From NCBI GenBank assembly GCA_903919315.1, contig CAIXHP010000014.1:296-64295 (forward strand): a DNA stretch of 64,000 bases, in the 5' to 3' direction. Below are positions 1,222 to 52,320 of this stretch, piece by piece. Numbering within the stretch: the first letter of the stretch is position 1; every line of letters starts with the position of its first letter. Under the pieces are notes generated by a model. That model ran no database searches. It had not been told where the DNA came from and worked only from the letters and a program-made list of their open reading frames with translations. This stretch comes from an uncultured Pseudomonadota bacterium (GTDB taxonomy: Bacteria; Pseudomonadota; Alphaproteobacteria; UBA9219). A program made the translations under genes and the position numbers.

Positions 1222-2916
1222 ATGATCCCTCCTCACCTTCCTTGGGCGAAGGCCTATCCCGCTTCGGTGGATTGGGGGGCGGAGCTTGTTGGGCGGCCTC
1301 TGTACGCGCTTTTGGACGACGCGGTGCGGGATTATCCCAAGCGGCCGTTTCTGGATTTTCTGGGGAAGATTTATACCTACCGCGAGGTCGGCAAGCTTGT
1401 GGCGCGGGCGGCGCGGGGGTTTCAGGATCTCGGTGTGGGCAAGGGCGACCGTGTGGGGCTGTTCCTTCCCAACTCGCCGTTTTACGTCATTGCGTATTTC
1501 GCGGCGCTGAAGATCGGCGCGACGGTCGTCAATTTTAATCCGCTCTACGCCGAGGATGAGGTCAAGCACCAGATCAACGATGCCGAGGTCAGCGTGATGG
1601 TCACGCTCGATATGCCGTTGCTGTATGACAAGCTGGTGAAGGTCTGCGGCGCGACCTGCCTCAAGCGCATCGTCGTGGGGCGCATGACGGATATTTTGCC
1701 GACGCTGTTGGCGCTGGTTTATCCGGCGGTGAAATTCCGCGACGTGGCATCGCTCGCGCCGGGGTCGGTTTTGTTCAGCGATTTGCTGGACAACGACGGC
1801 GACTATGCGCCTGCGCCGATTGATCCGTTCAACGATGTCGCCGTGTTGCAATACACCGGCGGCACGACGGGTCTGCCCAAGGGCGCGATGCTGACGCACG
1901 CCAATCTGGCGGTCAACGCGATGCAGTCGCGGTTGCTCGTGCCGCGCGTCGCGTTCGGGCAGGAGAGGATGCTGGGCGTGCTGCCCTTTTTCCATGTGTT
2001 CGCCATGACGGTGGTGATGAACGTCGCCATTCTGATGGGCGGGGTCATCATTCTGTTGCCGCGCTTTGATCTGTCGCAGGTCGTCAAGACCATTCACAAA
2101 AAGCGCCCGACGATCTTTCCCGCCGTGCCGACGATCTACACGGCGATCAATCATTACAAGGACTTGAAGGAATATGATTTGTCTTCTATCCGCTATTGCA
2201 TCTCAGGCGGCGCGCCTTTGCCGGTGGAGGTGAAGCGGGACTTTGAGGCTTTGACCGGCTGCGTGTTGGTCGAGGGCTATGGGCTTTCGGAGACTTCGCC
2301 GGTGGTGAGCTGCAATCCGGTTGACGGCGTGAACAAGGCGGGGTCGATTGGGCTGCCGGTGCCGGGGACGTATATCGACATCGTGTCGCTGGACGACAAC
2401 ACGACCCTTTTGCCGCCCGGCGAGCGCGGCGAGGTGTGTTTGCGTGGGCCGCAGGTGATGAAGGGCTATTGGAAACAGCCGCAGGAAACGGCGGGCGTGT
2501 TGCGGACGGTGGCGGCGGCCGAGGGGCCGTCCGTGCAGCTCCGCACTGGCGATGTCGGCTATATGGACGAAGACGGCTACACCTTCATCGTGGATCGCAT
2601 CAAGGACATGATCACGGCGGGCGGGTTCAAAGTCTATCCGCGTCATGTCGAGGAGGCGATTTATCTCCACCCCTCCGTCGAGGAATGCGTCGTTGTGGGC
2701 GTGCCGGACGAATACCGTGGCCAGACGGTCAAAGCCTTCATCAAATTACGAGCGGGGCAGGTTTTGACGCGTGAGGAGTTGGTCGCGTTCCTTCGCGACA
2801 AACTCTCGCCCATCGAAATGCCGAAACAGGTCGCGTTCCGCGACAACTTGCCCAAGACGGCGATTGGCAAGCTGTCACGCAAGATGTTACTGGAGGAGGA
2901 AGCGCGGAAGGCTTGA
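1222..2916 (+). CDS. fadD: long-chain acyl-CoA synthetase (AMP-dependent ligase)
   Basis: 564-aa ORF with the AMP-binding signature LQYTGGTTGLPKGAMLTH, plus GYGLSETSP and TGDVGYMDEDGYTFIVDRIKD motifs. Confidence 0.88.
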   Translation: MIPPHLPWAKAYPASVDWGAELVGRPLYALLDDAVRDYPKRPFLDFLGKIYTYREVGKLVARAARGFQDLGVGKGDRVGLFLPNSPFYVIAYFAALKIGATVVNFNPLYAEDEVKHQINDAEVSVMVTLDMPLLYDKLVKVCGATCLKRIVVGRMTDILPTLLALVYPAVKFRDVASLAPGSVLFSDLLDNDGDYAPAPIDPFNDVAVLQYTGGTTGLPKGAMLTHANLAVNAMQSRLLVPRVAFGQERMLGVLPFFHVFAMTVVMNVAILMGGVIILLPRFDLSQVVKTIHKKRPTIFPAVPTIYTAINHYKDLKEYDLSSIRYCISGGAPLPVEVKRDFEALTGCVLVEGYGLSETSPVVSCNPVDGVNKAGSIGLPVPGTYIDIVSLDDNTTLLPPGERGEVCLRGPQVMKGYWKQPQETAGVLRTVAAAEGPSVQLRTGDVGYMDEDGYTFIVDRIKDMITAGGFKVYPRHVEEAIYLHPSVEECVVVGVPDEYRGQTVKAFIKLRAGQVLTREELVAFLRDKLSPIEMPKQVAFRDNLPKTAIGKLSRKMLLEEEARKA

Positions 2917-13786: not shown

Positions 13787-13863
13787 AGGTCGCGCCTGAC
13801 AGACAGGCATCCTCCTCACGAAGTCCTGATGCGGAACATCATGCCACAAGAAAGTGTTTAGAG

Positions 13864-14019
13864 TCCCTCCCCCTCGTGGGGAGGGTTAGGGAGGGGGGAG
13901 AGCGACCGGGGTGTGGCGTGTGATATTTGGTAAGGATAATGGTTAGGGAACATCATTTTCGGCAACAGTGCCCTTGCGGAACGCCCCCCTCCCCAACCCT
14001 CCCCACGAGGGGGGAGGGA
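13864..14019. repeat. Family B MITE-like element (about 156 bp) with about 35-bp terminal inverted repeats
   Basis: Left end TCCCTCCCCCTCGTGGGGAGGGTTAGGGAGGGGGG. The right end is its reverse complement with 2-3 differences. The internal sequence matches 52190-52320 in inverse orientation. Confidence 0.75.
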
Positions 14020-14073
14020 ATCGCCCTGACGGCCCTTCTGGGCCACTTGCTCTGGCTTCAGCCGGTTGTCGTT

Positions 14074-24689: not shown

Positions 24690-25793
24690 ATGGCTAAATC
24701 ATTCACCACCAGCGCCATTGCCGAGGCGCTTGACGCGCAGTTGATCGGCGACGGCACGATCCTCATCGAACGCGTCGCGCATCCGGCGGATGTGATGGGC
24801 GAGCATGTTCTTGCGCTGGCGACGGACAAAAATTTGTTGCCCTTGCTCACGGCCAACGGCGCGCGCGTTGCGGTCATCGGGCATGAGGCGGAGCCGGATC
24901 CGGGTTCGCTGGACGCTTGCATCGTCGTGCGGCGGCCGCGCCTCGCGCTGGCGAAGTTGACGGCGCTGTTCGCCGAGACGGTCGCGGTTCAGCCGGGCGT
25001 GCATCCGTCCGCCGTGATCGAGCCGGGGGCGCAGTTGGGCGAAAACGTCGCCATCGGGCCGCAGGTTTATGTCGGCGCGGGCGCGGTGATCGGCGCGAAC
25101 TCGACGCTGCATCCGCAAGTGTATGTTGGGCCGGAGGCCGTGATCGGCGAGGGAGCGTTGATCCATTCCGGCGCGCGGATCGGGGCGCGGGTGCGGATCG
25201 GCGCGCGCAGCATTATCCATTTCAACGCCAGCATCGGGGCGGACGGTTTCAGTTTTGTCACGCCGCAGTTGGGCAGCGTCGAGGCGGCCAAGGCCACCGG
25301 CGCGGTGGGGGCGACCAATTCGGAACTGGTGCGGATCGCTTCGCTGGGGACGGTTGTTCTGGGCGACGACGTGGAAATCGGGGCCAACACCTCGATTGAT
25401 CGCGGCACCATCGCCGCGACCAGCATCGGCGACGGCACCAAGATCGACAATCAGGTGCAGGTTGGCCACAACGTCGTGATCGGCACGAACTGCCTGATCT
25501 GTGGCCGCGTCGGCATCGCGGGCAGCGCCACCATCGGCAACCGCGTCGTGCTGGGCGGGGCGACGGGCGTGGCGGATCATGTCAAGATCGGCGACGACGC
25601 TATCGCCATGGGCATGAGCGGCATTGCCGGTAACATTGCGCCCAAAAGTCTGGTCGCGGGCGTTCCCGCCAAGCCGAGGAGCTTGGTCATCGAACAGCAT
25701 TTCAATATCAACCGCATAAAGAACTTGATAAAGAAGGTCGAAACGTTAACGGCGCGGCTGGATGCCCTTGAGCGTTCGGCCAAAAACGACTAG
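24690..25793 (+). CDS. lpxD: UDP-3-O-acylglucosamine N-acyltransferase (LpxD family)
   Basis: LpxD-type N-terminal domain ([13 protein letters not shown]...VAHPADV), a long left-handed beta-helix of hexapeptide repeats, and a C-terminal helix. Confidence 0.82.
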
Positions 25794-26101: not shown

Positions 26102-26573
26102 GCAACCCCCCACCCAGCCTCCCCCTCAAGGGGGGAGGAGTTAGAGCGGTGCGTGCCGCATGCGGCGGCGCACAAAGTTTCGTCCGAAGATTATGCCCGG
26201 GCCAAGCGGCTGCGGCGGGAGATGTCGCTTCCGGAAAAGTTGTTGTGGCACAAGTTGCGTTCTTTGCCGAAGGATGTGGGGTTGGCTTTTCGTCGTCAAC
26301 AACCGATCCATCCCTATGTCGTCGATTTCGCGTGTTTGCGGCTTAGGATGGTGATCGAGGTCGATGGGTGGTCGCATGACCAGAGGCTGGAGCGGGATCG
26401 CCAGCGCGATCTTTATCTGGCTCGTCTCGGTTATGTGACTTTACGTTTTACCAATGACGACGTTACGGGCAATCTTGACGGTGTCGTGGAAACGATCGTC
26501 AGGGAAGCCCTTGCTCGCCGCTAGGGCAAGCCGAACTCCTCCCCCCTTGAGGGGGAGGTTGGGTGGGGGCTGC
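26102..26573. mobile_element. DUF559 endonuclease cassette bounded by about 40-bp family B inverted repeats
   Basis: 26102-26142 GCAACCCCCCACCCAGCCTCCCCCTCAAGGGGGGAGGAGTT matches the reverse complement of 26534-26573 (about 38/41 by hand alignment). It is inserted 16 nt after the ACP stop codon. Confidence 0.5.
26153..26524 (+). CDS. DUF559 (Vsr/restriction-endonuclease-like fold) domain protein
   Basis: ARAKRLRREMSLPEKLLWHKLR...YVVDFACLRLRMVIEVDGWSHD...RDLYLARLGYVTLRFTNDDV matches the DUF559 pattern. Start uncertain: GTG 26153 is chosen, and the ORF is open from inside the left repeat. Confidence 0.8.
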   Translation: MPHAAAHKVSSEDYARAKRLRREMSLPEKLLWHKLRSLPKDVGLAFRRQQPIHPYVVDFACLRLRMVIEVDGWSHDQRLERDRQRDLYLARLGYVTLRFTNDDVTGNLDGVVETIVREALARR

Positions 26574-29917: not shown

Positions 29918-32488
29918 CTACCCCCGCAGCATCGCGCCGGTTGCTTTGGTGACGGCGGCGGTGATGCGGGTGGTCAGGGCTTCGAGTTCGGCATCGGTCA
30001 GCGTGTGGTCGGCGGGTTGCAGCGTGACGCTGAGCGCCACCGACTTTTTGTTCACGCCGACGCGTTCCCCTTCGTAAACATCGAACACCGTCACGTCGCG
30101 GATCAGGTTCTTGTCCGCGCTGCGCACCGCCTTGATCAGTTTGTCGGCGGTGATCGCGGCATCGACCACAAAGGCGAAATCGCGCGCCACTGTTTGCAAC
30201 GCGTCCAGTTTCAGCAGAGGCTTGGCCGTGCCGTTGCCGCGCGGTTGCGGGATGGCGGCCAGAAACAGCTCGCACCCGACCATCGGCCCTTCGGCATCGC
30301 AGGCGGCGAGCAGCGACGGGTGCAGTTCGCCGAAATAGCCCAGAACCGTCGCGCCGAGGCGCAGACTGCCGGAGCGGCCGGGGTGGTACCATGCGGGCGC
30401 GTCCGCCGCGACTTGCAGCGATCCCGCCGGAGCGCCTGCGGCGGCCAGCGTCGCCAGCGCGTCGGCCTTGGCATCAAACGCATCGACCGCGCGGCGCGGC
30501 GCGGCCCAATGACGCGGCGAGCTTCCGGCGCGGAGCGCGGCGGCGACGCAGTCTTGTCCGTCCGGCATGGCGTTGCGGTAGGCGGGGCCGACTTCGAACA
30601 GGCCGACATCGGCAAAGCCGCGATCCGCGTTGCGCTTGGCCGCCAGAACCAGATTGCCGAGGACGCTGGGGCGCATCACGTCGAGATCGGTGCTGATCGG
30701 ATTCACGAGCCGGAGCGACGGATCGTTTTGGCCGAATTCCGCCGCGACGTTCGACGGCATGAACGACCATGTCACGGCTTCCAGCAAGCCTTGAGCCGCC
30801 AGCGCGCGCCGCGCCGCGCTCGTGCGTTGATCCAGTTTGTCGAGCGCCGCCGTCGTCACCGCCGTCGGGCGCGGCAGCGAGGTGGCGGGAATATGGTCAA
30901 AGCCCTTGATGCGGATGACTTCTTCGGCAATGTCCGCCGCGCCTTCGACATCGTGCCGCCATGTGGGCGGGGTGATGGCGTACGCGCCGTTTTGGTTTTT
31001 GAGCGTGAAGCCGAGCGCCGTCAAAATCCGCACTTGCTCTGCCTCCGGCACATCGACGCCGATCAGCATTTTGCATTTTGCGGGAGCGTAGCTGATGGTG
31101 CGGGTGGCGGTGGGGACGGCTCCGGCGACGGTGACGTCGCTGACCGCCGTGGTTGGTGTGGCGCAAAAATCCAGAACCAGTTGCGTCGCCATCTCAAGGC
31201 CGGGGAGGACGAAGGCCGGATCGACGCCGCGCTCAAAGCGGTAACGCGCGTCGGACGCGATTTGCAGGGCGCGGCCTGTCTTGGCCGTGCGCACAGGGTC
31301 AAAGGCGGCGGATTCGATGAAGACCGACGTTGTGTTCGCGTCGCAGCCGCTGGACGCGCCGCCCATGATGCCCGCGAGGCTCAACACGCCGGTGTCGTCG
31401 CCGATGGCGGTCATGCCGGGGGCGAGGGCGCAGTCTTTGCCGTTCAGCGCCGCGAAACTTTCGCCGCCCTTGGCAAGGCGCACCCAAAGCTGGCCCTTGA
31501 TCTTGTCGGCGTCGAACACATGCAGGGGCCGCGCCTGATCGAAGGTGAGATAGTTGGTGATGTCGACCAAGGCGGAGATGGGGCGCAAACCTATGGCGCG
31601 GAGTTGGCTTTGCAGCCATTCCGGGCTTGGCCCGTTCTTGATATTGCGGATCACGCGGCCCGTGAAGAGCGGGCAGGGCGTAACACTCTCCCCAACCCTC
31701 CCCTCAAGGGCGAGGGCGTTCCGTGAGCGCTCCACGAATCCCTCCCCCCTTGAGGGGGAGGTTAGGTGGGGGGTGGGTTCCGTAAGCGCGGACGTTTCAG
31801 GTCGAGCGTCCAGAGACCCCCCACCCAACCCTCCCCCCAGAGGGGGAGGGCTTTCATTTGCGAAGTCCAGCGTGACGGTGATGGGGCTGGGGAAGCTGCC
31901 TTTGACCGGGGCGATGACCAACGGCTTGAGCGTGCCTAATCCTGCCGCCGCGAGGTCGCGGGCGATGCCGCGCACGCCTGCGCAATCGGCGCGGTTGGGG
32001 GTCAGGTTGATTTCGATGACGGGGTCGTTCAGTCCGGCGAAGGCCGCGAATTTCTCGCCTAGGGGCGCGTCGGCGGGCAGTTCGATGATGCCGGAATGTT
32101 CGTCGCCGAGCTTGAGTTCGTCCGCCGCGCACATCATGCCTTGGGATTCCACGCCGCGAATTTTGCTGAGTTTCAGGGCTTCGCCGGTGGCGGGGATGAT
32201 GTCGCCGGGGCGGGCCAAGACGGTCTTTAATCCGGGTCGCGCGTTCGGCGCGCCGCACACGACTTGGATTTTCTCGTGGCCGGTGTCGACGGTGCAGACT
32301 TGCAGCCGGTCGGCTTGCGGATGTTTTTCCGCCGCGACAATCTGCGCGATGGCGAAGGGCGCGAGCGCCGCGCCGCGATCTTCCACGCCTTCGACCTCAA
32401 GCCCGATGGCGGTGAGTTTTTCGCACAGCGCTTCCAGCGAGGCGGTGGTGTCGAGGTGCTGTTTCAGCCAACTCAGGGTAAACTTCAT
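29918..32488 (-). CDS. pheT: phenylalanine-tRNA ligase beta subunit carrying an in-frame insertion of about 59 codons derived from repeats
   Basis: MKFTLSWLKQHL start, tRNA-binding, B3/4, B5 and FDX-ACB-like regions. See the repeat feature at 31688-31850. Confidence 0.95.
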   Translation of the reverse strand: MKFTLSWLKQHLDTTASLEALCEKLTAIGLEVEGVEDRGAALAPFAIAQIVAAEKHPQADRLQVCTVDTGHEKIQVVCGAPNARPGLKTVLARPGDIIPATGEALKLSKIRGVESQGMMCAADELKLGDEHSGIIELPADAPLGEKFAAFAGLNDPVIEINLTPNRADCAGVRGIARDLAAAGLGTLKPLVIAPVKGSFPSPITVTLDFANESPPPLGGGLGGGSLDARPETSALTEPTPHLTSPSRGEGFVERSRNALALEGRVGESVTPCPLFTGRVIRNIKNGPSPEWLQSQLRAIGLRPISALVDITNYLTFDQARPLHVFDADKIKGQLWVRLAKGGESFAALNGKDCALAPGMTAIGDDTGVLSLAGIMGGASSGCDANTTSVFIESAAFDPVRTAKTGRALQIASDARYRFERGVDPAFVLPGLEMATQLVLDFCATPTTAVSDVTVAGAVPTATRTISYAPAKCKMLIGVDVPEAEQVRILTALGFTLKNQNGAYAITPPTWRHDVEGAADIAEEVIRIKGFDHIPATSLPRPTAVTTAALDKLDQRTSAARRALAAQGLLEAVTWSFMPSNVAAEFGQNDPSLRLVNPISTDLDVMRPSVLGNLVLAAKRNADRGFADVGLFEVGPAYRNAMPDGQDCVAAALRAGSSPRHWAAPRRAVDAFDAKADALATLAAAGAPAGSLQVAADAPAWYHPGRSGSLRLGATVLGYFGELHPSLLAACDAEGPMVGCELFLAAIPQPRGNGTAKPLLKLDALQTVARDFAFVVDAAITADKLIKAVRSADKNLIRDVTVFDVYEGERVGVNKKSVALSVTLQPADHTLTDAELEALTTRITAAVTKATGAMLRG
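31688..31850. repeat. Three family B hairpin modules inside the pheT coding sequence
   Basis: CTCCCCAACCCTCCCCTCAAGGGCGAGGG, CCCTCCCCCCTTGAGGGGGAGGTTAGGTGGGGGG, ACCCCCCACCCAACCCTCCCCCCAGAGGGGGAGGG. On the minus strand they translate as ESPPPLGGGLGGG...TSPSRGEGF...LALEGRVGES. Confidence 0.8.
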
Positions 32489-32513
32489 AATCCGGCTCCA
32501 AGGCAAATAAGTG

Positions 32514-47058: not shown

Positions 47059-48105
47059 TTAGCGGGCAACGTTTTTATTCCCGGCATCGCCCTTGCGGAG
47101 CGCCCCCCTCCCTGACCCTCCGCGCGAGGGGGAGGGGATTGCTGTGTCGGCTCTTTTGGGCCAACTTTCCAACAATGTCGCCATATCTTTCGGCATCGGA
47201 GTCGTGAAGCGCATGGCTTTGCCGGTGCGGGGGTGGATGAAGGTGAGTTCGGCGGCGTGGAGGGCTTGCCGCGAAAAGCCCGCGACCTTGCCGCCCCGCC
47301 CATAGGTCGGATCGCCGACCAAGGGATGCCCGATATGCGCCATATGCACGCGGATCTGGTGCGTCCGCCCTGTGGCCAGCTTGCATTCGATCAGGCTCGC
47401 CGTGGTCGCGCCCGCGCCCAACCGCTCCACGAGTTTGTAATGCGTCAAAGCCGCCTTGCCGCCGTGGCGCACCACCGCCATTTTCTTGCGGTCGCGGGGA
47501 TGGCGGCCAATCGCGCCTTCGACCGACCCGGCGACGAGATTGAGCGCGCCCCAGACCAAGGCCTGATAAACGCGGCTCAGGCTCCTGTCGGCGAACTGGC
47601 GCGACAAGGCTTGATGCGCGGCATCGTGTTTGGCCACCACCATGAGGCCGCTGGTGTCCTTGTCGAGGCGATGGACGATGCCGGGCCGCGCCACGCCGCC
47701 GATGCCGCTCAGGCTGTCGCCGCAATGCGCCAACAGGGCGTTGACGAGCGTGCGATCCCGATTTCCGGCGGCGGGATGCACCACCAGCCCCGCAGGCTTA
47801 TCGACGACCAGCAGATCGGCATCTTCATAAACGATCCGCAGCGGCATGGCCTGAGCCTCGGGCAAAGCGGGTTCCGGCGGCAGAAGCGTGACGGTGTAAA
47901 CTTCGCCCGCATGAACCTTGTCGCTGGCATCCAGCGCGGCGTTTCCTGCGCGCGCCACCAGCCCCGCCTTGATCAACCGCTGCACCCCCGCCCGCGAAGG
48001 CGGAGTCTGCGAAGGCGCGGCCACAACCCAAGCCTCCACCAACGCCCGATCAAGCCGCGAAGCTTCCAGCCCTGCCGTTATAAAAATAGTAAGAGTCTCC
48101 GTCAT
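47059..48105 (-). CDS. rluD: 23S rRNA pseudouridine synthase (RluD/RluA family) with a repeat-encoded C-terminal extension
   Basis: S4-like N-terminus, HRLDKDTSGLMVVAK and GRTHQIRVHMAHIGHPLVGD. The last 30 or so aa (..AIPSPSRGGSGRGALRKGDAGNKNVAR) are encoded by a family B unit. Confidence 0.88.
   Translation of the reverse strand: MTETLTIFITAGLEASRLDRALVEAWVVAAPSQTPPSRAGVQRLIKAGLVARAGNAALDASDKVHAGEVYTVTLLPPEPALPEAQAMPLRIVYEDADLLVVDKPAGLVVHPAAGNRDRTLVNALLAHCGDSLSGIGGVARPGIVHRLDKDTSGLMVVAKHDAAHQALSRQFADRSLSRVYQALVWGALNLVAGSVEGAIGRHPRDRKKMAVVRHGGKAALTHYKLVERLGAGATTASLIECKLATGRTHQIRVHMAHIGHPLVGDPTYGRGGKVAGFSRQALHAAELTFIHPRTGKAMRFTTPMPKDMATLLESWPKRADTAIPSPSRGGSGRGALRKGDAGNKNVAR
47083..47142. repeat. 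Family B solo end, inside the 3' end of rluD
   Basis: GCCCTTGCGGAGCGCCCCCCTCCCTGACCCTCCGCGCGAGGGGGAGGGGATTGC, near-identical to the right end of 13864-14019. Confidence 0.8.
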
Positions 48106-52189: not shown

Positions 52190-52320
52190 AAGGGGAGGGG
52201 GCGTTCCGCAAGGGCAATGTTGGAGAAAATGAAATTCCCTGACCGTTATCCTTTTCCAACAGACTACACCGCGCCCGGTCGTTCTCCCCCCTCCCTGACC
52301 CTCCCCACGAGGGGGAGGGA
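52190..52320. repeat. Family B MITE-like element, inverse orientation, one end truncated
   Basis: The reverse complement aligns with 13864-14019 (TCCCTCCCCCTCGTGGGGAGGGTCAGGGAGGGGGGAGAACGACCGGG...GGATAACGGTCAGGGAA...TTGCCCTTGCGGAACGCCCCCTCCCC). Confidence 0.75.

Follow-up and report, generated by a model that had tools for sequence, protein, structure and literature searches.

The pheT gene of this alphaproteobacterial genome, which encodes the beta subunit of phenylalanyl-tRNA synthetase (PheRS), carries, in frame, a composite copy of a dispersed hairpin repeat, family B, an insertion most probably tolerated as selfish or neutral DNA, a reading to which we assign a probability of about 85%. 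The gene lies in the window, the whole stretch of 64,000 nucleotides that was analysed (Table 1), and the genome has no second pheT (one full-length match). Its open frame covers 29918-32506 on the reverse strand, up to a TTG at 32506 (862 aa), and the ATG at 32488, the start used by gene callers, gives a product of 856 aa. The first-pass annotation had described a 177-nt, stop-free, in-frame block at 31679-31855, and translation confirmed it: the reverse complement of this segment contains no stop codons and reads ESPPPLGGGLGGGSLDARPETSALTEPTPHLTSPSRGEGFVERSRNALALEGRVGESVT, a low-complexity peptide rich in Pro, Gly, and Ser that is flanked by VTLDFAN on one side and PCPLFTGRVIRNI on the other. 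The same annotation had counted about 59 extra codons, a figure that had to be lowered, since the LDF-to-CP spacing is 62 residues in this PheT vs 6-7 in orthologues, which corresponds to a net gain of about 55-56 codons. The stretch common to the pheT insert and a copy in kdtA measures 167 nt, and the exact junctions are therefore uncertain by a few bases. The junction peptides predicted for the insert-bearing PheT are LDFANESPPPLGGGLGGGSLDAR and VGESVTPCPLFTGR.

Table 1. Coordinates of pheT, of the parts of its insert, and of the other family B features in the window.
Feature	Position	Strand	Details
pheT, phenylalanyl-tRNA synthetase beta subunit	29918..32488	-	Pfam tRNA_bind, B3_4, B5, tRNA_synthFbeta, FDX-ACB
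In-frame pheT block	31679..31855	-	177 nt = 59 codons as delimited by the first-pass annotation
Family B module 1, first on coding strand	31815..31854	-	AAAGCCCTCCCCCTCTGGGGGGAGGG hairpin + TTGGGTGGGGGGTC G-box; nhmmer E 4e-10
Short-type dimer spacer	31775..31814	-	Found elsewhere only in kdtA copies
Family B module 2	31737..31774	-	C-box + hairpin on coding strand, inverted vs module 1; nhmmer E 4e-11
Second spacer + decayed module 3 (GCCCTCGCCCTTGAGGGGAGGGTTGGGGAGAG)	31688..31736	-	Module 3 at ~31688-31719, seen in alignment with kdtA copy
Intergenic dimer, B2 sub-type	13862..14020	.	TCGT loop, GTTAGGGAGGGG box
DUF559 (Vsr-like PD-(D/E)XK) cassette	26105..26569	+	Between ACP and KAS genes; alignment of three cassettes
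rluD C-terminal tail	47059..47130	-	Read through decayed family B module (...IPSPSRGGSGRG...)

The family B module is a 40-nt unit composed of a CCCTCCCCC/GGGGGAGGG hairpin and a G-rich box. All three hairpin modules formerly proposed for the pheT insert are present, but only two of them are strong when scored by nhmmer against a profile of modules from the whole genome, the third being decayed. Modules 1 and 2 together constitute a 38-nt inverted repeat with arms 82% complementary, and the trimer layout is also found in the third kdtA unit; positions 2-168 of the insert match C49:27291-27457 with 89% identity (blastn). The 22-nt hairpin core did not occur in any of 100 shuffles of the window. 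A search of Rfam returned no family at the gathering score, only sub-threshold, miRNA-like hairpin noise. The two best pheT modules are as well preserved as the intergenic copies, which is compatible with a recent event as well as with maintenance.

Comparison with related PheT sequences supports the block being an insertion of the repeat and not a native domain. In tblastn searches with PheT, each of the 38 related genomes that gave a pheT match lacked the insert; there the matches broke at residues 217/276, and 3-4 codons of DNA separated the two parts. The alignment of orthologues that had been suggested for delimiting the insert gave the same picture: 107 of the 121 database homologues have 6-7 residues at this site, and 115 of the 121 lack any extra segment there, the nearest insert-free homologue being 76% identical. 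No equivalent segment was found in orthologues without the repeat family, either in the 38 related genomes or among the 121 homologues. A native domain lost in the other lineages was rejected on these counts (38/38 relatives, 115/121 homologues), as well as on the scattered distribution of the carriers on the tree.

Regarding the position within the protein, the insert maps between residues ~207 and 210 of the solved P. aeruginosa PheT and to 208/209 of E. coli PheT, and the B3_4 Pfam match begins at profile position 2 directly after it. The AlphaFold2 model of the 856-aa protein matches bacterial PheRS beta chains (E 7.5e-72) and has a mean pLDDT of 85, with values above 90 in the flanking strands and of 26-46 over the insert (residues 211-267). 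The insert is thus predicted to form a disordered loop that borders the B3/4 editing domain and is flanked by confidently modelled strands, and once translated it would most likely form a floppy surface loop.

When the pheT insert was used as a blastn query, 55 loci were identified in the genome, and nhmmer detected about 86 family B modules, nearly all of them intergenic. Twenty-seven family B dimers of 118-127 nt each could be aligned end to end. These matches identify the insert as a member of a dispersed G/C-rich repeat family. At most about 5 of the 31 family B module loci fall inside genes, vs roughly 88% expected at random if the assumed coding density is taken as the expectation. All genic dimers belong to short-spacer sub-types of which no intergenic copy exists, a distribution that simple random insertion followed by selection would not predict; it might indicate that genic copies were copied from one another or that a targeting mechanism acted. 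Frame statistics for the dimer by itself are uninformative owing to its fuzzy boundaries and to 2-3 of the six frames usually being open. Long ORFs across other copies (C5:43258, C8:55407, C32:22802, C3:32443, and others) were not counted as genes, as they look like Arg-rich antisense artefacts of a genome with 59% G+C.

Four genes besides pheT carry family B in frame, namely kdtA (three tandem copies), prmC, ileS, and valS; none of the four inserts is present in relatives (for ileS and valS the comparison covered 8 relatives and partial queries). In this genome, all five genic insertions (pheT included) have a length divisible by three, contain no stop codon, and are missing from relatives; if the frame were irrelevant, all five would be in frame with a chance of (1/3)^5, or about 0.004. 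The first-pass annotation had also attributed the C-terminus of rluD to the same family, and its tail does cross a decayed module.

PheT has gained in-frame repeats independently in at least eight lineages, in this linker and in one loop of the B5 domain. Among the 121 PheT sequences, six independent insertions were located at the linker and four at the B5 loop, and the eight insert carriers require eight changes on the tree. The inserts derive from two unrelated repeat families, and those that other lineages have at the linker are unrelated in sequence and read in different frames, the six at the linker comprising three of family B and three of an unrelated CGTC-REP type. All ten PheT inserts in relatives are open and in frame. 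Judging from these sequences, the recurrent sites probably reflect a filter that lets insertions persist in permissive loops.

In the scenario that we favour, a family B composite (a dimer plus a third module, ~167 nt; a REP/MITE-like hairpin repeat) would have entered the short linker that lies in PheT between the N-terminal B1/B2 part and the B3/4 editing domain. By chance, the inserted copy kept the frame and had no stop codon, so that the only pheT of the cell would still yield a protein of full length, with the repeat translated into a disordered surface loop of roughly 56 residues, tolerated as selfish or neutral DNA rather than serving as a new functional domain. Selection would purge the copies landing elsewhere in genes, and such purging would leave the family almost wholly intergenic, with a few genic copies at domain boundaries and in loops.

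Another explanation, which we regard as unlikely, is that insertion was targeted, with an element or nuclease recognising an AAAGCC(C)TSCCC-like sequence of the native linker. At this site, relatives without an insert have …AAGAAAGCCTGTCCG… or …ACAAAGCCCTGCCC…, which is similar to the element end AAAGCCCTCCCC, and the resemblance of the uninserted target (…AAAGCCTGCCCG…) in several relatives to this end makes some sequence-driven targeting possible. The three independent family B insertions in one linker and the separate sub-family formed by the genic copies are also consistent with targeting. However, the other half of the linker inserts belong to the unrelated CGTC-REP type, the insertion codon varies among lineages, and no target-site duplication was visible, as no common direct repeat was found beside the 27 aligned dimers.

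We consider it improbable that the loop added at the B1/B3 junction was exapted for a function, for example in modulating editing, in tRNA binding, in complex assembly, or in a moonlighting interaction, and is kept by selection. The fixation of the insert in both known variants of the species, the use of the same linker in six lineages, the fact that aminoacyl-tRNA synthetases are three of the five genic hosts, and the good preservation of the two main hairpins would fit such a role. On the other hand, the inserts at the same site elsewhere are unrelated in sequence, coming from two repeat families in different frames, and the peptide itself is of low complexity and predicted to be disordered. 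Furthermore, the sole amino-acid polymorphism of the protein falls within the insert, and most close relatives have no insert at all.

Translational bypassing is known from T4 gene 60 and from the mitochondrial 'byp' hairpins, and the insert could in principle be missing from the mature protein through bypassing, RNA processing, or protein splicing, which we hold to be very improbable. The insert RNA is predicted to fold into very stable nested hairpins (-115.8 kcal/mol, z = -3.8), and the block has Glu-Ser codons (GAAAGC / GAGAGT) at either end, as such skipping might lead one to expect; the right-hand GAGAG, however, is part of the module's own G-box and thus does not represent a duplicated landing site. 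Being open and in frame would be no requirement for a skipped element, yet this is the case for the pheT block, the other four genic copies, and all ten PheT inserts of relatives. Neither Pfam nor Rfam showed an intein or intron signature, no Pfam family falls on PheT residues 218-275, where the sequence is the repeat itself, and intein, intron, and bypass were rejected for this lack of motifs and for the open frame of every genic copy. Finally, that a repeat copy was wrongly threaded into pheT during assembly or binning is hardly credible, since, even though the genome is a 70-contig MAG in which family B repeats lie at the ends of several contigs (C3 end, C4 start, C66 start, C68 end), at least six contigs from different assemblies (several of 50-200 kb) encode the identical 856-aa product, a second allele (855/856 identical, the single change lying inside the insert) also carries it, both junctions are unique sequence with the frame kept across 177 nt, and repeats normally break contigs rather than insert themselves.

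Concerning a possible mobiliser, the window contains a DUF559 gene (match at 26195-26506; PF04480, 112 bits) for which a link with family B had previously been noted, and this gene is indeed bracketed by family B modules, at 26105-26142 and 26534-26569, which form the terminal inverted repeats of the cassette. The same holds for all three DUF559 genes of the genome and, when its relatives are counted in, for 15 of 21, and family B termini were also identified on the DUF559 gene of a Deinococcus plasmid. In this genome the modules of the family B dimer stand in the opposite order to those of the DUF559 cassette. To our knowledge, DUF559 is not known as a transposase, and a literature search on DUF559 with repeats or mobile elements retrieved nothing relevant. 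A RAYT as the mobiliser of family B was rejected, as no modules were found on the contigs of the two Y1_Tnp genes (C23:103579-103935; C15:209-571). Tentatively, and with more doubt than confidence, family B modules may be non-autonomous partners of small DUF559 nuclease cassettes, forming a second repeat-enzyme pair besides REP-RAYT that ranges from Alphaproteobacteria to Deinococcota; an open-frame sub-family with a length divisible by three would then spread preferentially between coding sites and seed new peptide loops where PheRS and other essential enzymes have recurrent hot spots.

When compared to known systems, the pheT insert is a genuine case of an insertion like those of the Rickettsia palindromic elements (RPEs), a kind already known from Rickettsia and other bacteria, and the parallel drawn in the first-pass annotation gains from the four additional housekeeping genes with family B in frame. 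RPE-1 to RPE-10 have been described in frame in genes (Ogata et al. 2000 Science 290:347; Ogata et al. 2002 Genome Res 12:808; as summarised in PMC10969869). Like the RPEs and the Wolbachia palindromic elements, family B consists of dispersed palindromic repeats of about 100-150 nt; as with RPEs, they reside in frame in unrelated housekeeping genes of an alphaproteobacterial host, adding a peptide to a protein that apparently still functions, and the genic copies are restricted to some sub-families. In contrast to RPEs, family B is G/C-rich and built from 40-nt hairpin-plus-box modules, a composition and modular build from which homology to the RPE consensus is judged very unlikely. It resides in a freshwater bacterium of free-living or predatory type, with a genome of 2.4 Mb, rather than in an obligate intracellular host, only about 5 of its 31 loci lie in genes vs nearly half for some RPE families, and it is tied to DUF559 genes. 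We know of no enzyme partner for the RPEs.

REPs inside ORFs have been reported for many species (Di Nocera, De Gregorio & Rocco 2013, PMC3733652). Family B resembles the GTAG- and CGTC-tagged REPs and REPINs of that study in being composed of short G/C-rich, mostly intergenic hairpins, often in inverted pairs, with the inverted dimer as a common unit; REPs likewise border a gene whose product is a putative mobilising enzyme, have some copies wholly within ORFs of known proteins, and, in the CGTC type, occupy the same PheT linker in relatives. Unlike REPs, family B has a consensus (AAAGCCCTCCCCCCTTGAGGGGGAGGGTTGGGTGGGGGGTC) without a GTAG or CGTC tag and flanks genes for DUF559 PD-(D/E)XK nucleases instead of the genome's two Y1-transposase genes. 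In-frame ORF fusions have also been attributed to bacterial MITEs, namely ERIC, BOX, and Anabaena MITEs (Delihas 2007, as cited in PMC10969869), which share with family B a presumably non-autonomous nature, terminal inverted repeats, and the ability to be read as part of host ORFs. Family B differs from them in the missing target-site duplication at its dimers, in sharing its termini with the gene of a small nuclease that is not a known transposase, and in the opposite module order of dimer and DUF559 cassette.

Such insertions recur here, however, at the same two PheT loops in several related lineages. This repeated, independent reuse by two unrelated repeat families is a natural guide to the places where PheRS can accommodate 15-60 extra residues, which is useful for protein engineering. 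Genome annotation would benefit as well, since inserts of this kind inflate the lengths of proteins and give rise to spurious "GEG/PLPS" peptides. From the consistent bracketing of DUF559 genes by family B modules, a hypothesis that can be tested arises on what this large domain family of unknown function does. The reading-through of selfish hairpins in essential genes is not peculiar to the obligate intracellular Rickettsiales, as the same would take place in a free-living or predatory-type freshwater family of the Alphaproteobacteria.

The source genome, with a listed completeness of 100%, has one full-length pheT (tblastn), whose ORF product contains the Pfam domains tRNA_bind (52-152), B3_4 (278-448), B5, a catalytic-like module, and FDX-ACB. 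The start codon chosen by gene callers is the ATG at 32488, which yields an 856-aa protein. Between VTLDFAN and PCPLFTGRVIRNI, the stop-free 177-nt block reported by the first-pass annotation was recovered with the same peptide. The block contains an inverted repeat of 38 nt (82% complementary) and additional hairpins, folds as RNA at -115.8 kcal/mol (z = -3.8), and includes a 22-nt hairpin core occurring three times in the window versus none in 100 shuffles.

PheT was searched by tblastn against 40 related genomes (same family and order); pheT was detected in 38, and in every one of these the match was split (query residues ~6-217 and 276-862) into pieces lying 3-4 codons apart in the DNA. 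In an alignment of 30 orthologues, no residues are aligned with the insert. Across 121 PheTs (the best 120 database homologues and one relative), the LDF-to-CPxF spacing is 6-7 residues in 107 and 62 in the source genome; the net gain is therefore ~55-56 codons rather than the ~59 first estimated. Since the closest insert-free homologue is 76% identical, the insertion date is bounded only loosely. The insert is real sequence: the exact 856-aa protein is found on at least six contigs, which come from several ENA/NCBI assemblies and in some cases measure 50-200 kb, and the two junctions are unique sequence. A second full-length variant in the 90% cluster is identical at 855/856 positions, with the sole difference, E262V, falling within the insert.

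An AlphaFold2 model based on a 41-sequence alignment (856-aa numbering; mean pLDDT 85) assigned pLDDT values of 26-46 to residues 211-267, corresponding to the insert, and above 90 to the flanking strands 205-208 and 274-281. In a Foldseek search the model matched beta chains of bacterial PheRS (E 7.5e-72). By sequence, the insert is situated between ~207 and 210 in the PheT of P. aeruginosa (4p71) and at 208/209 in that of E. coli (3pco).

The block matched 55 loci in the source genome (blastn), and an Rfam search returned no family matching the insert repeat. The usual unit of this repeat, family B, is a dimer of 118-127 nt (27 copies aligned) composed of two inverted 40-nt modules, AAAGCCCTCCCCCC-TTGA-GGGGGAGGG then TTGGGTGGGGGGTC. 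A module profile search identified 86 copies, 79 of them strong, in 31 loci, a copy number that is a lower bound because several contigs have family B at one of their ends (C3:32619-32741, C4:1-40, C66:226-345, C68:58466-58668) and the repeats thus break the assembly. The pheT block consists of a dimer, a spacer, and a decayed third module, and the kdtA insert ends in the same trimer (89% identity). The decayed module resembles a second sub-type (TCGT loop, GTTAGGGAGGGG box), which is intergenic at 13862-14020 and 52300-52318 of the window. Replicons of Sinorhizobium, Rhizobium, Azospirillum, and Deinococcus carry similar modules. On Sinorhizobium fredii plasmid NZ_CP035038 (locus L142, 1500-1600), dimers built from this module type are cassette-like in order (C-box+hairpin ... 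hairpin+G-box), opposite to those of the source genome (hairpin+G-box ... C-box+hairpin).

Family B loci within genes numbered at most ~5 of 31, and the probability of so few is ~1e-19, assuming 88% coding density. All five genic insertions (pheT, kdtA, prmC, ileS, valS) are stop-free multiples of three. The latter four are likewise in conserved genes; host gene identity was confirmed by Pfam, and each insert is absent from relatives. The kdtA units, which recur every 156 nt exactly (52 codons), lie within the glycosyltransferase domain at the C-terminus. Short spacers were present in 6/6 genic dimers, and one spacer type was common to the pheT and kdtA copies and absent from all intergenic copies. 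The last ~25 residues of rluD (…IPSPSRGGSGRGALRKGDAGNKNVAR) read through a decayed module, so that family B supplies its C-terminal tail, as previously suggested, together with the stop.

Location of pheT, genic family B elements, and DUF559 cassettes (C, contig of the source genome)
Feature	Location	Strand	Description
pheT ORF	window 29918..32506	minus	encodes PheT
pheT block	window 31679-31855	minus	in-frame repeat insert
rluD end	window 47059-47130	minus	decayed module
kdtA (Kdo transferase)	C49:27286-27769		3 tandem in-frame dimer units, ~165 aa
prmC	C22:12254-12535		in-frame insert, two dimers
ileS	C51, around 2460-2580		in-frame insert, ~40 aa
valS	C69, around 25160-25230		in-frame insert, ~24 aa
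DUF559 cassette	window 26105-26569		flanked by modules (hairpin plus C/G-box) in inverted orientation
DUF559 cassette	C22:6149-6684		flanked by modules (hairpin plus C/G-box) in inverted orientation
DUF559 cassette	C51:20053-20562		flanked by modules (hairpin plus C/G-box) in inverted orientation
DUF559 cassette	L143, NZ_CP026518 1501-1985		inverted modules at both sides

Inserts of +15 to +56 residues in the B1/B3 linker were present in 6/121 PheTs, being of family B type in the source genome and the homologues P0009 and P0076, and of CGTC-REP type, a repeat unrelated to family B, in P0077, P0090, and the related genome G016. One B5 loop was filled (+34 to +48 residues) in four (P0025, P0076, P0087, G016), and both sites were occupied in P0076 and G016 (L029, G016:C79 pheT). 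On a maximum-likelihood tree built without insert columns, the eight carriers require eight changes, at least seven being forced by well-supported branches. In-frame repeats at the linker and B5 loop arose independently in related genera, and the use of the same two loops by two unrelated repeat families suggests that the filter common to both is structural tolerance. In several relatives the native DNA of the linker is similar to the family B element end, so there may also be some targeting to the linker, for family B only. P0087 carries a third insert (19 aa, after ...IPATS), and the pheT genes of relatives G014 (L019) and G005 (L025) encode ~13 extra residues after ...LKxxxx, upstream of the linker by ~20 residues.

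In the source genome, 3/3 DUF559 (PF04480) genes lie between inverted family B modules. Terminal inverted repeats of 20-68 nt and of the same hairpin-plus-box type, with genome-specific sequence, were observed at 15 of the 21 DUF559 loci examined in this genome and its relatives. Among 41 genomes, 12 had both modules and DUF559, 4 modules only, 4 DUF559 only, and 21 neither (Fisher p = 2.6e-4, uncorrected for phylogeny). On a Deinococcus plasmid (L143, NZ_CP026518), a module match precedes an annotated DUF559 gene by 14 nt, and its partner lies downstream of the gene. In one relative (L130, G009:C46:34289-34597), a DUF559 cassette occupies the pheS-pheT region, immediately upstream of pheT. 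The source genome has two Y1 transposase genes, neither with family B modules in its vicinity, and a literature search for DUF559 linked to repeats found no such paper. Together, the DUF559 gene and its flanking modules look like a mobile cassette whose putative ends are the repeat family, and DUF559 is, by association only, a possible partner enzyme of family B.

Rickettsia palindromic elements (RPEs) are characterized by palindromic repeats that lie in frame within housekeeping genes (Ogata et al. 2000, 2002, as cited in PMC10969869), and REPs wholly within ORFs are listed in many species (PMC3733652). The pheT insert behaves like both. By sequence, family B very probably does not belong to the RPEs, and it has neither the GTAG/CGTC tag nor the flanking RAYT (Y1 transposase partner) of classical REPs. 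The observation of the insert is confirmed, and its original interpretation as an RPE-like, in-frame insertion is supported by the split match in all 38 relatives, the 55 matched loci, and the in-frame genic copies. We consider it about 85% probable that a REP/MITE-like insertion at a permissive PheT domain boundary gave rise to a tolerated, presumably translated, and predicted disordered loop. Two features exceed what is usually reported: the repeated use of two PheT loops as insertion hot spots and the association with DUF559.
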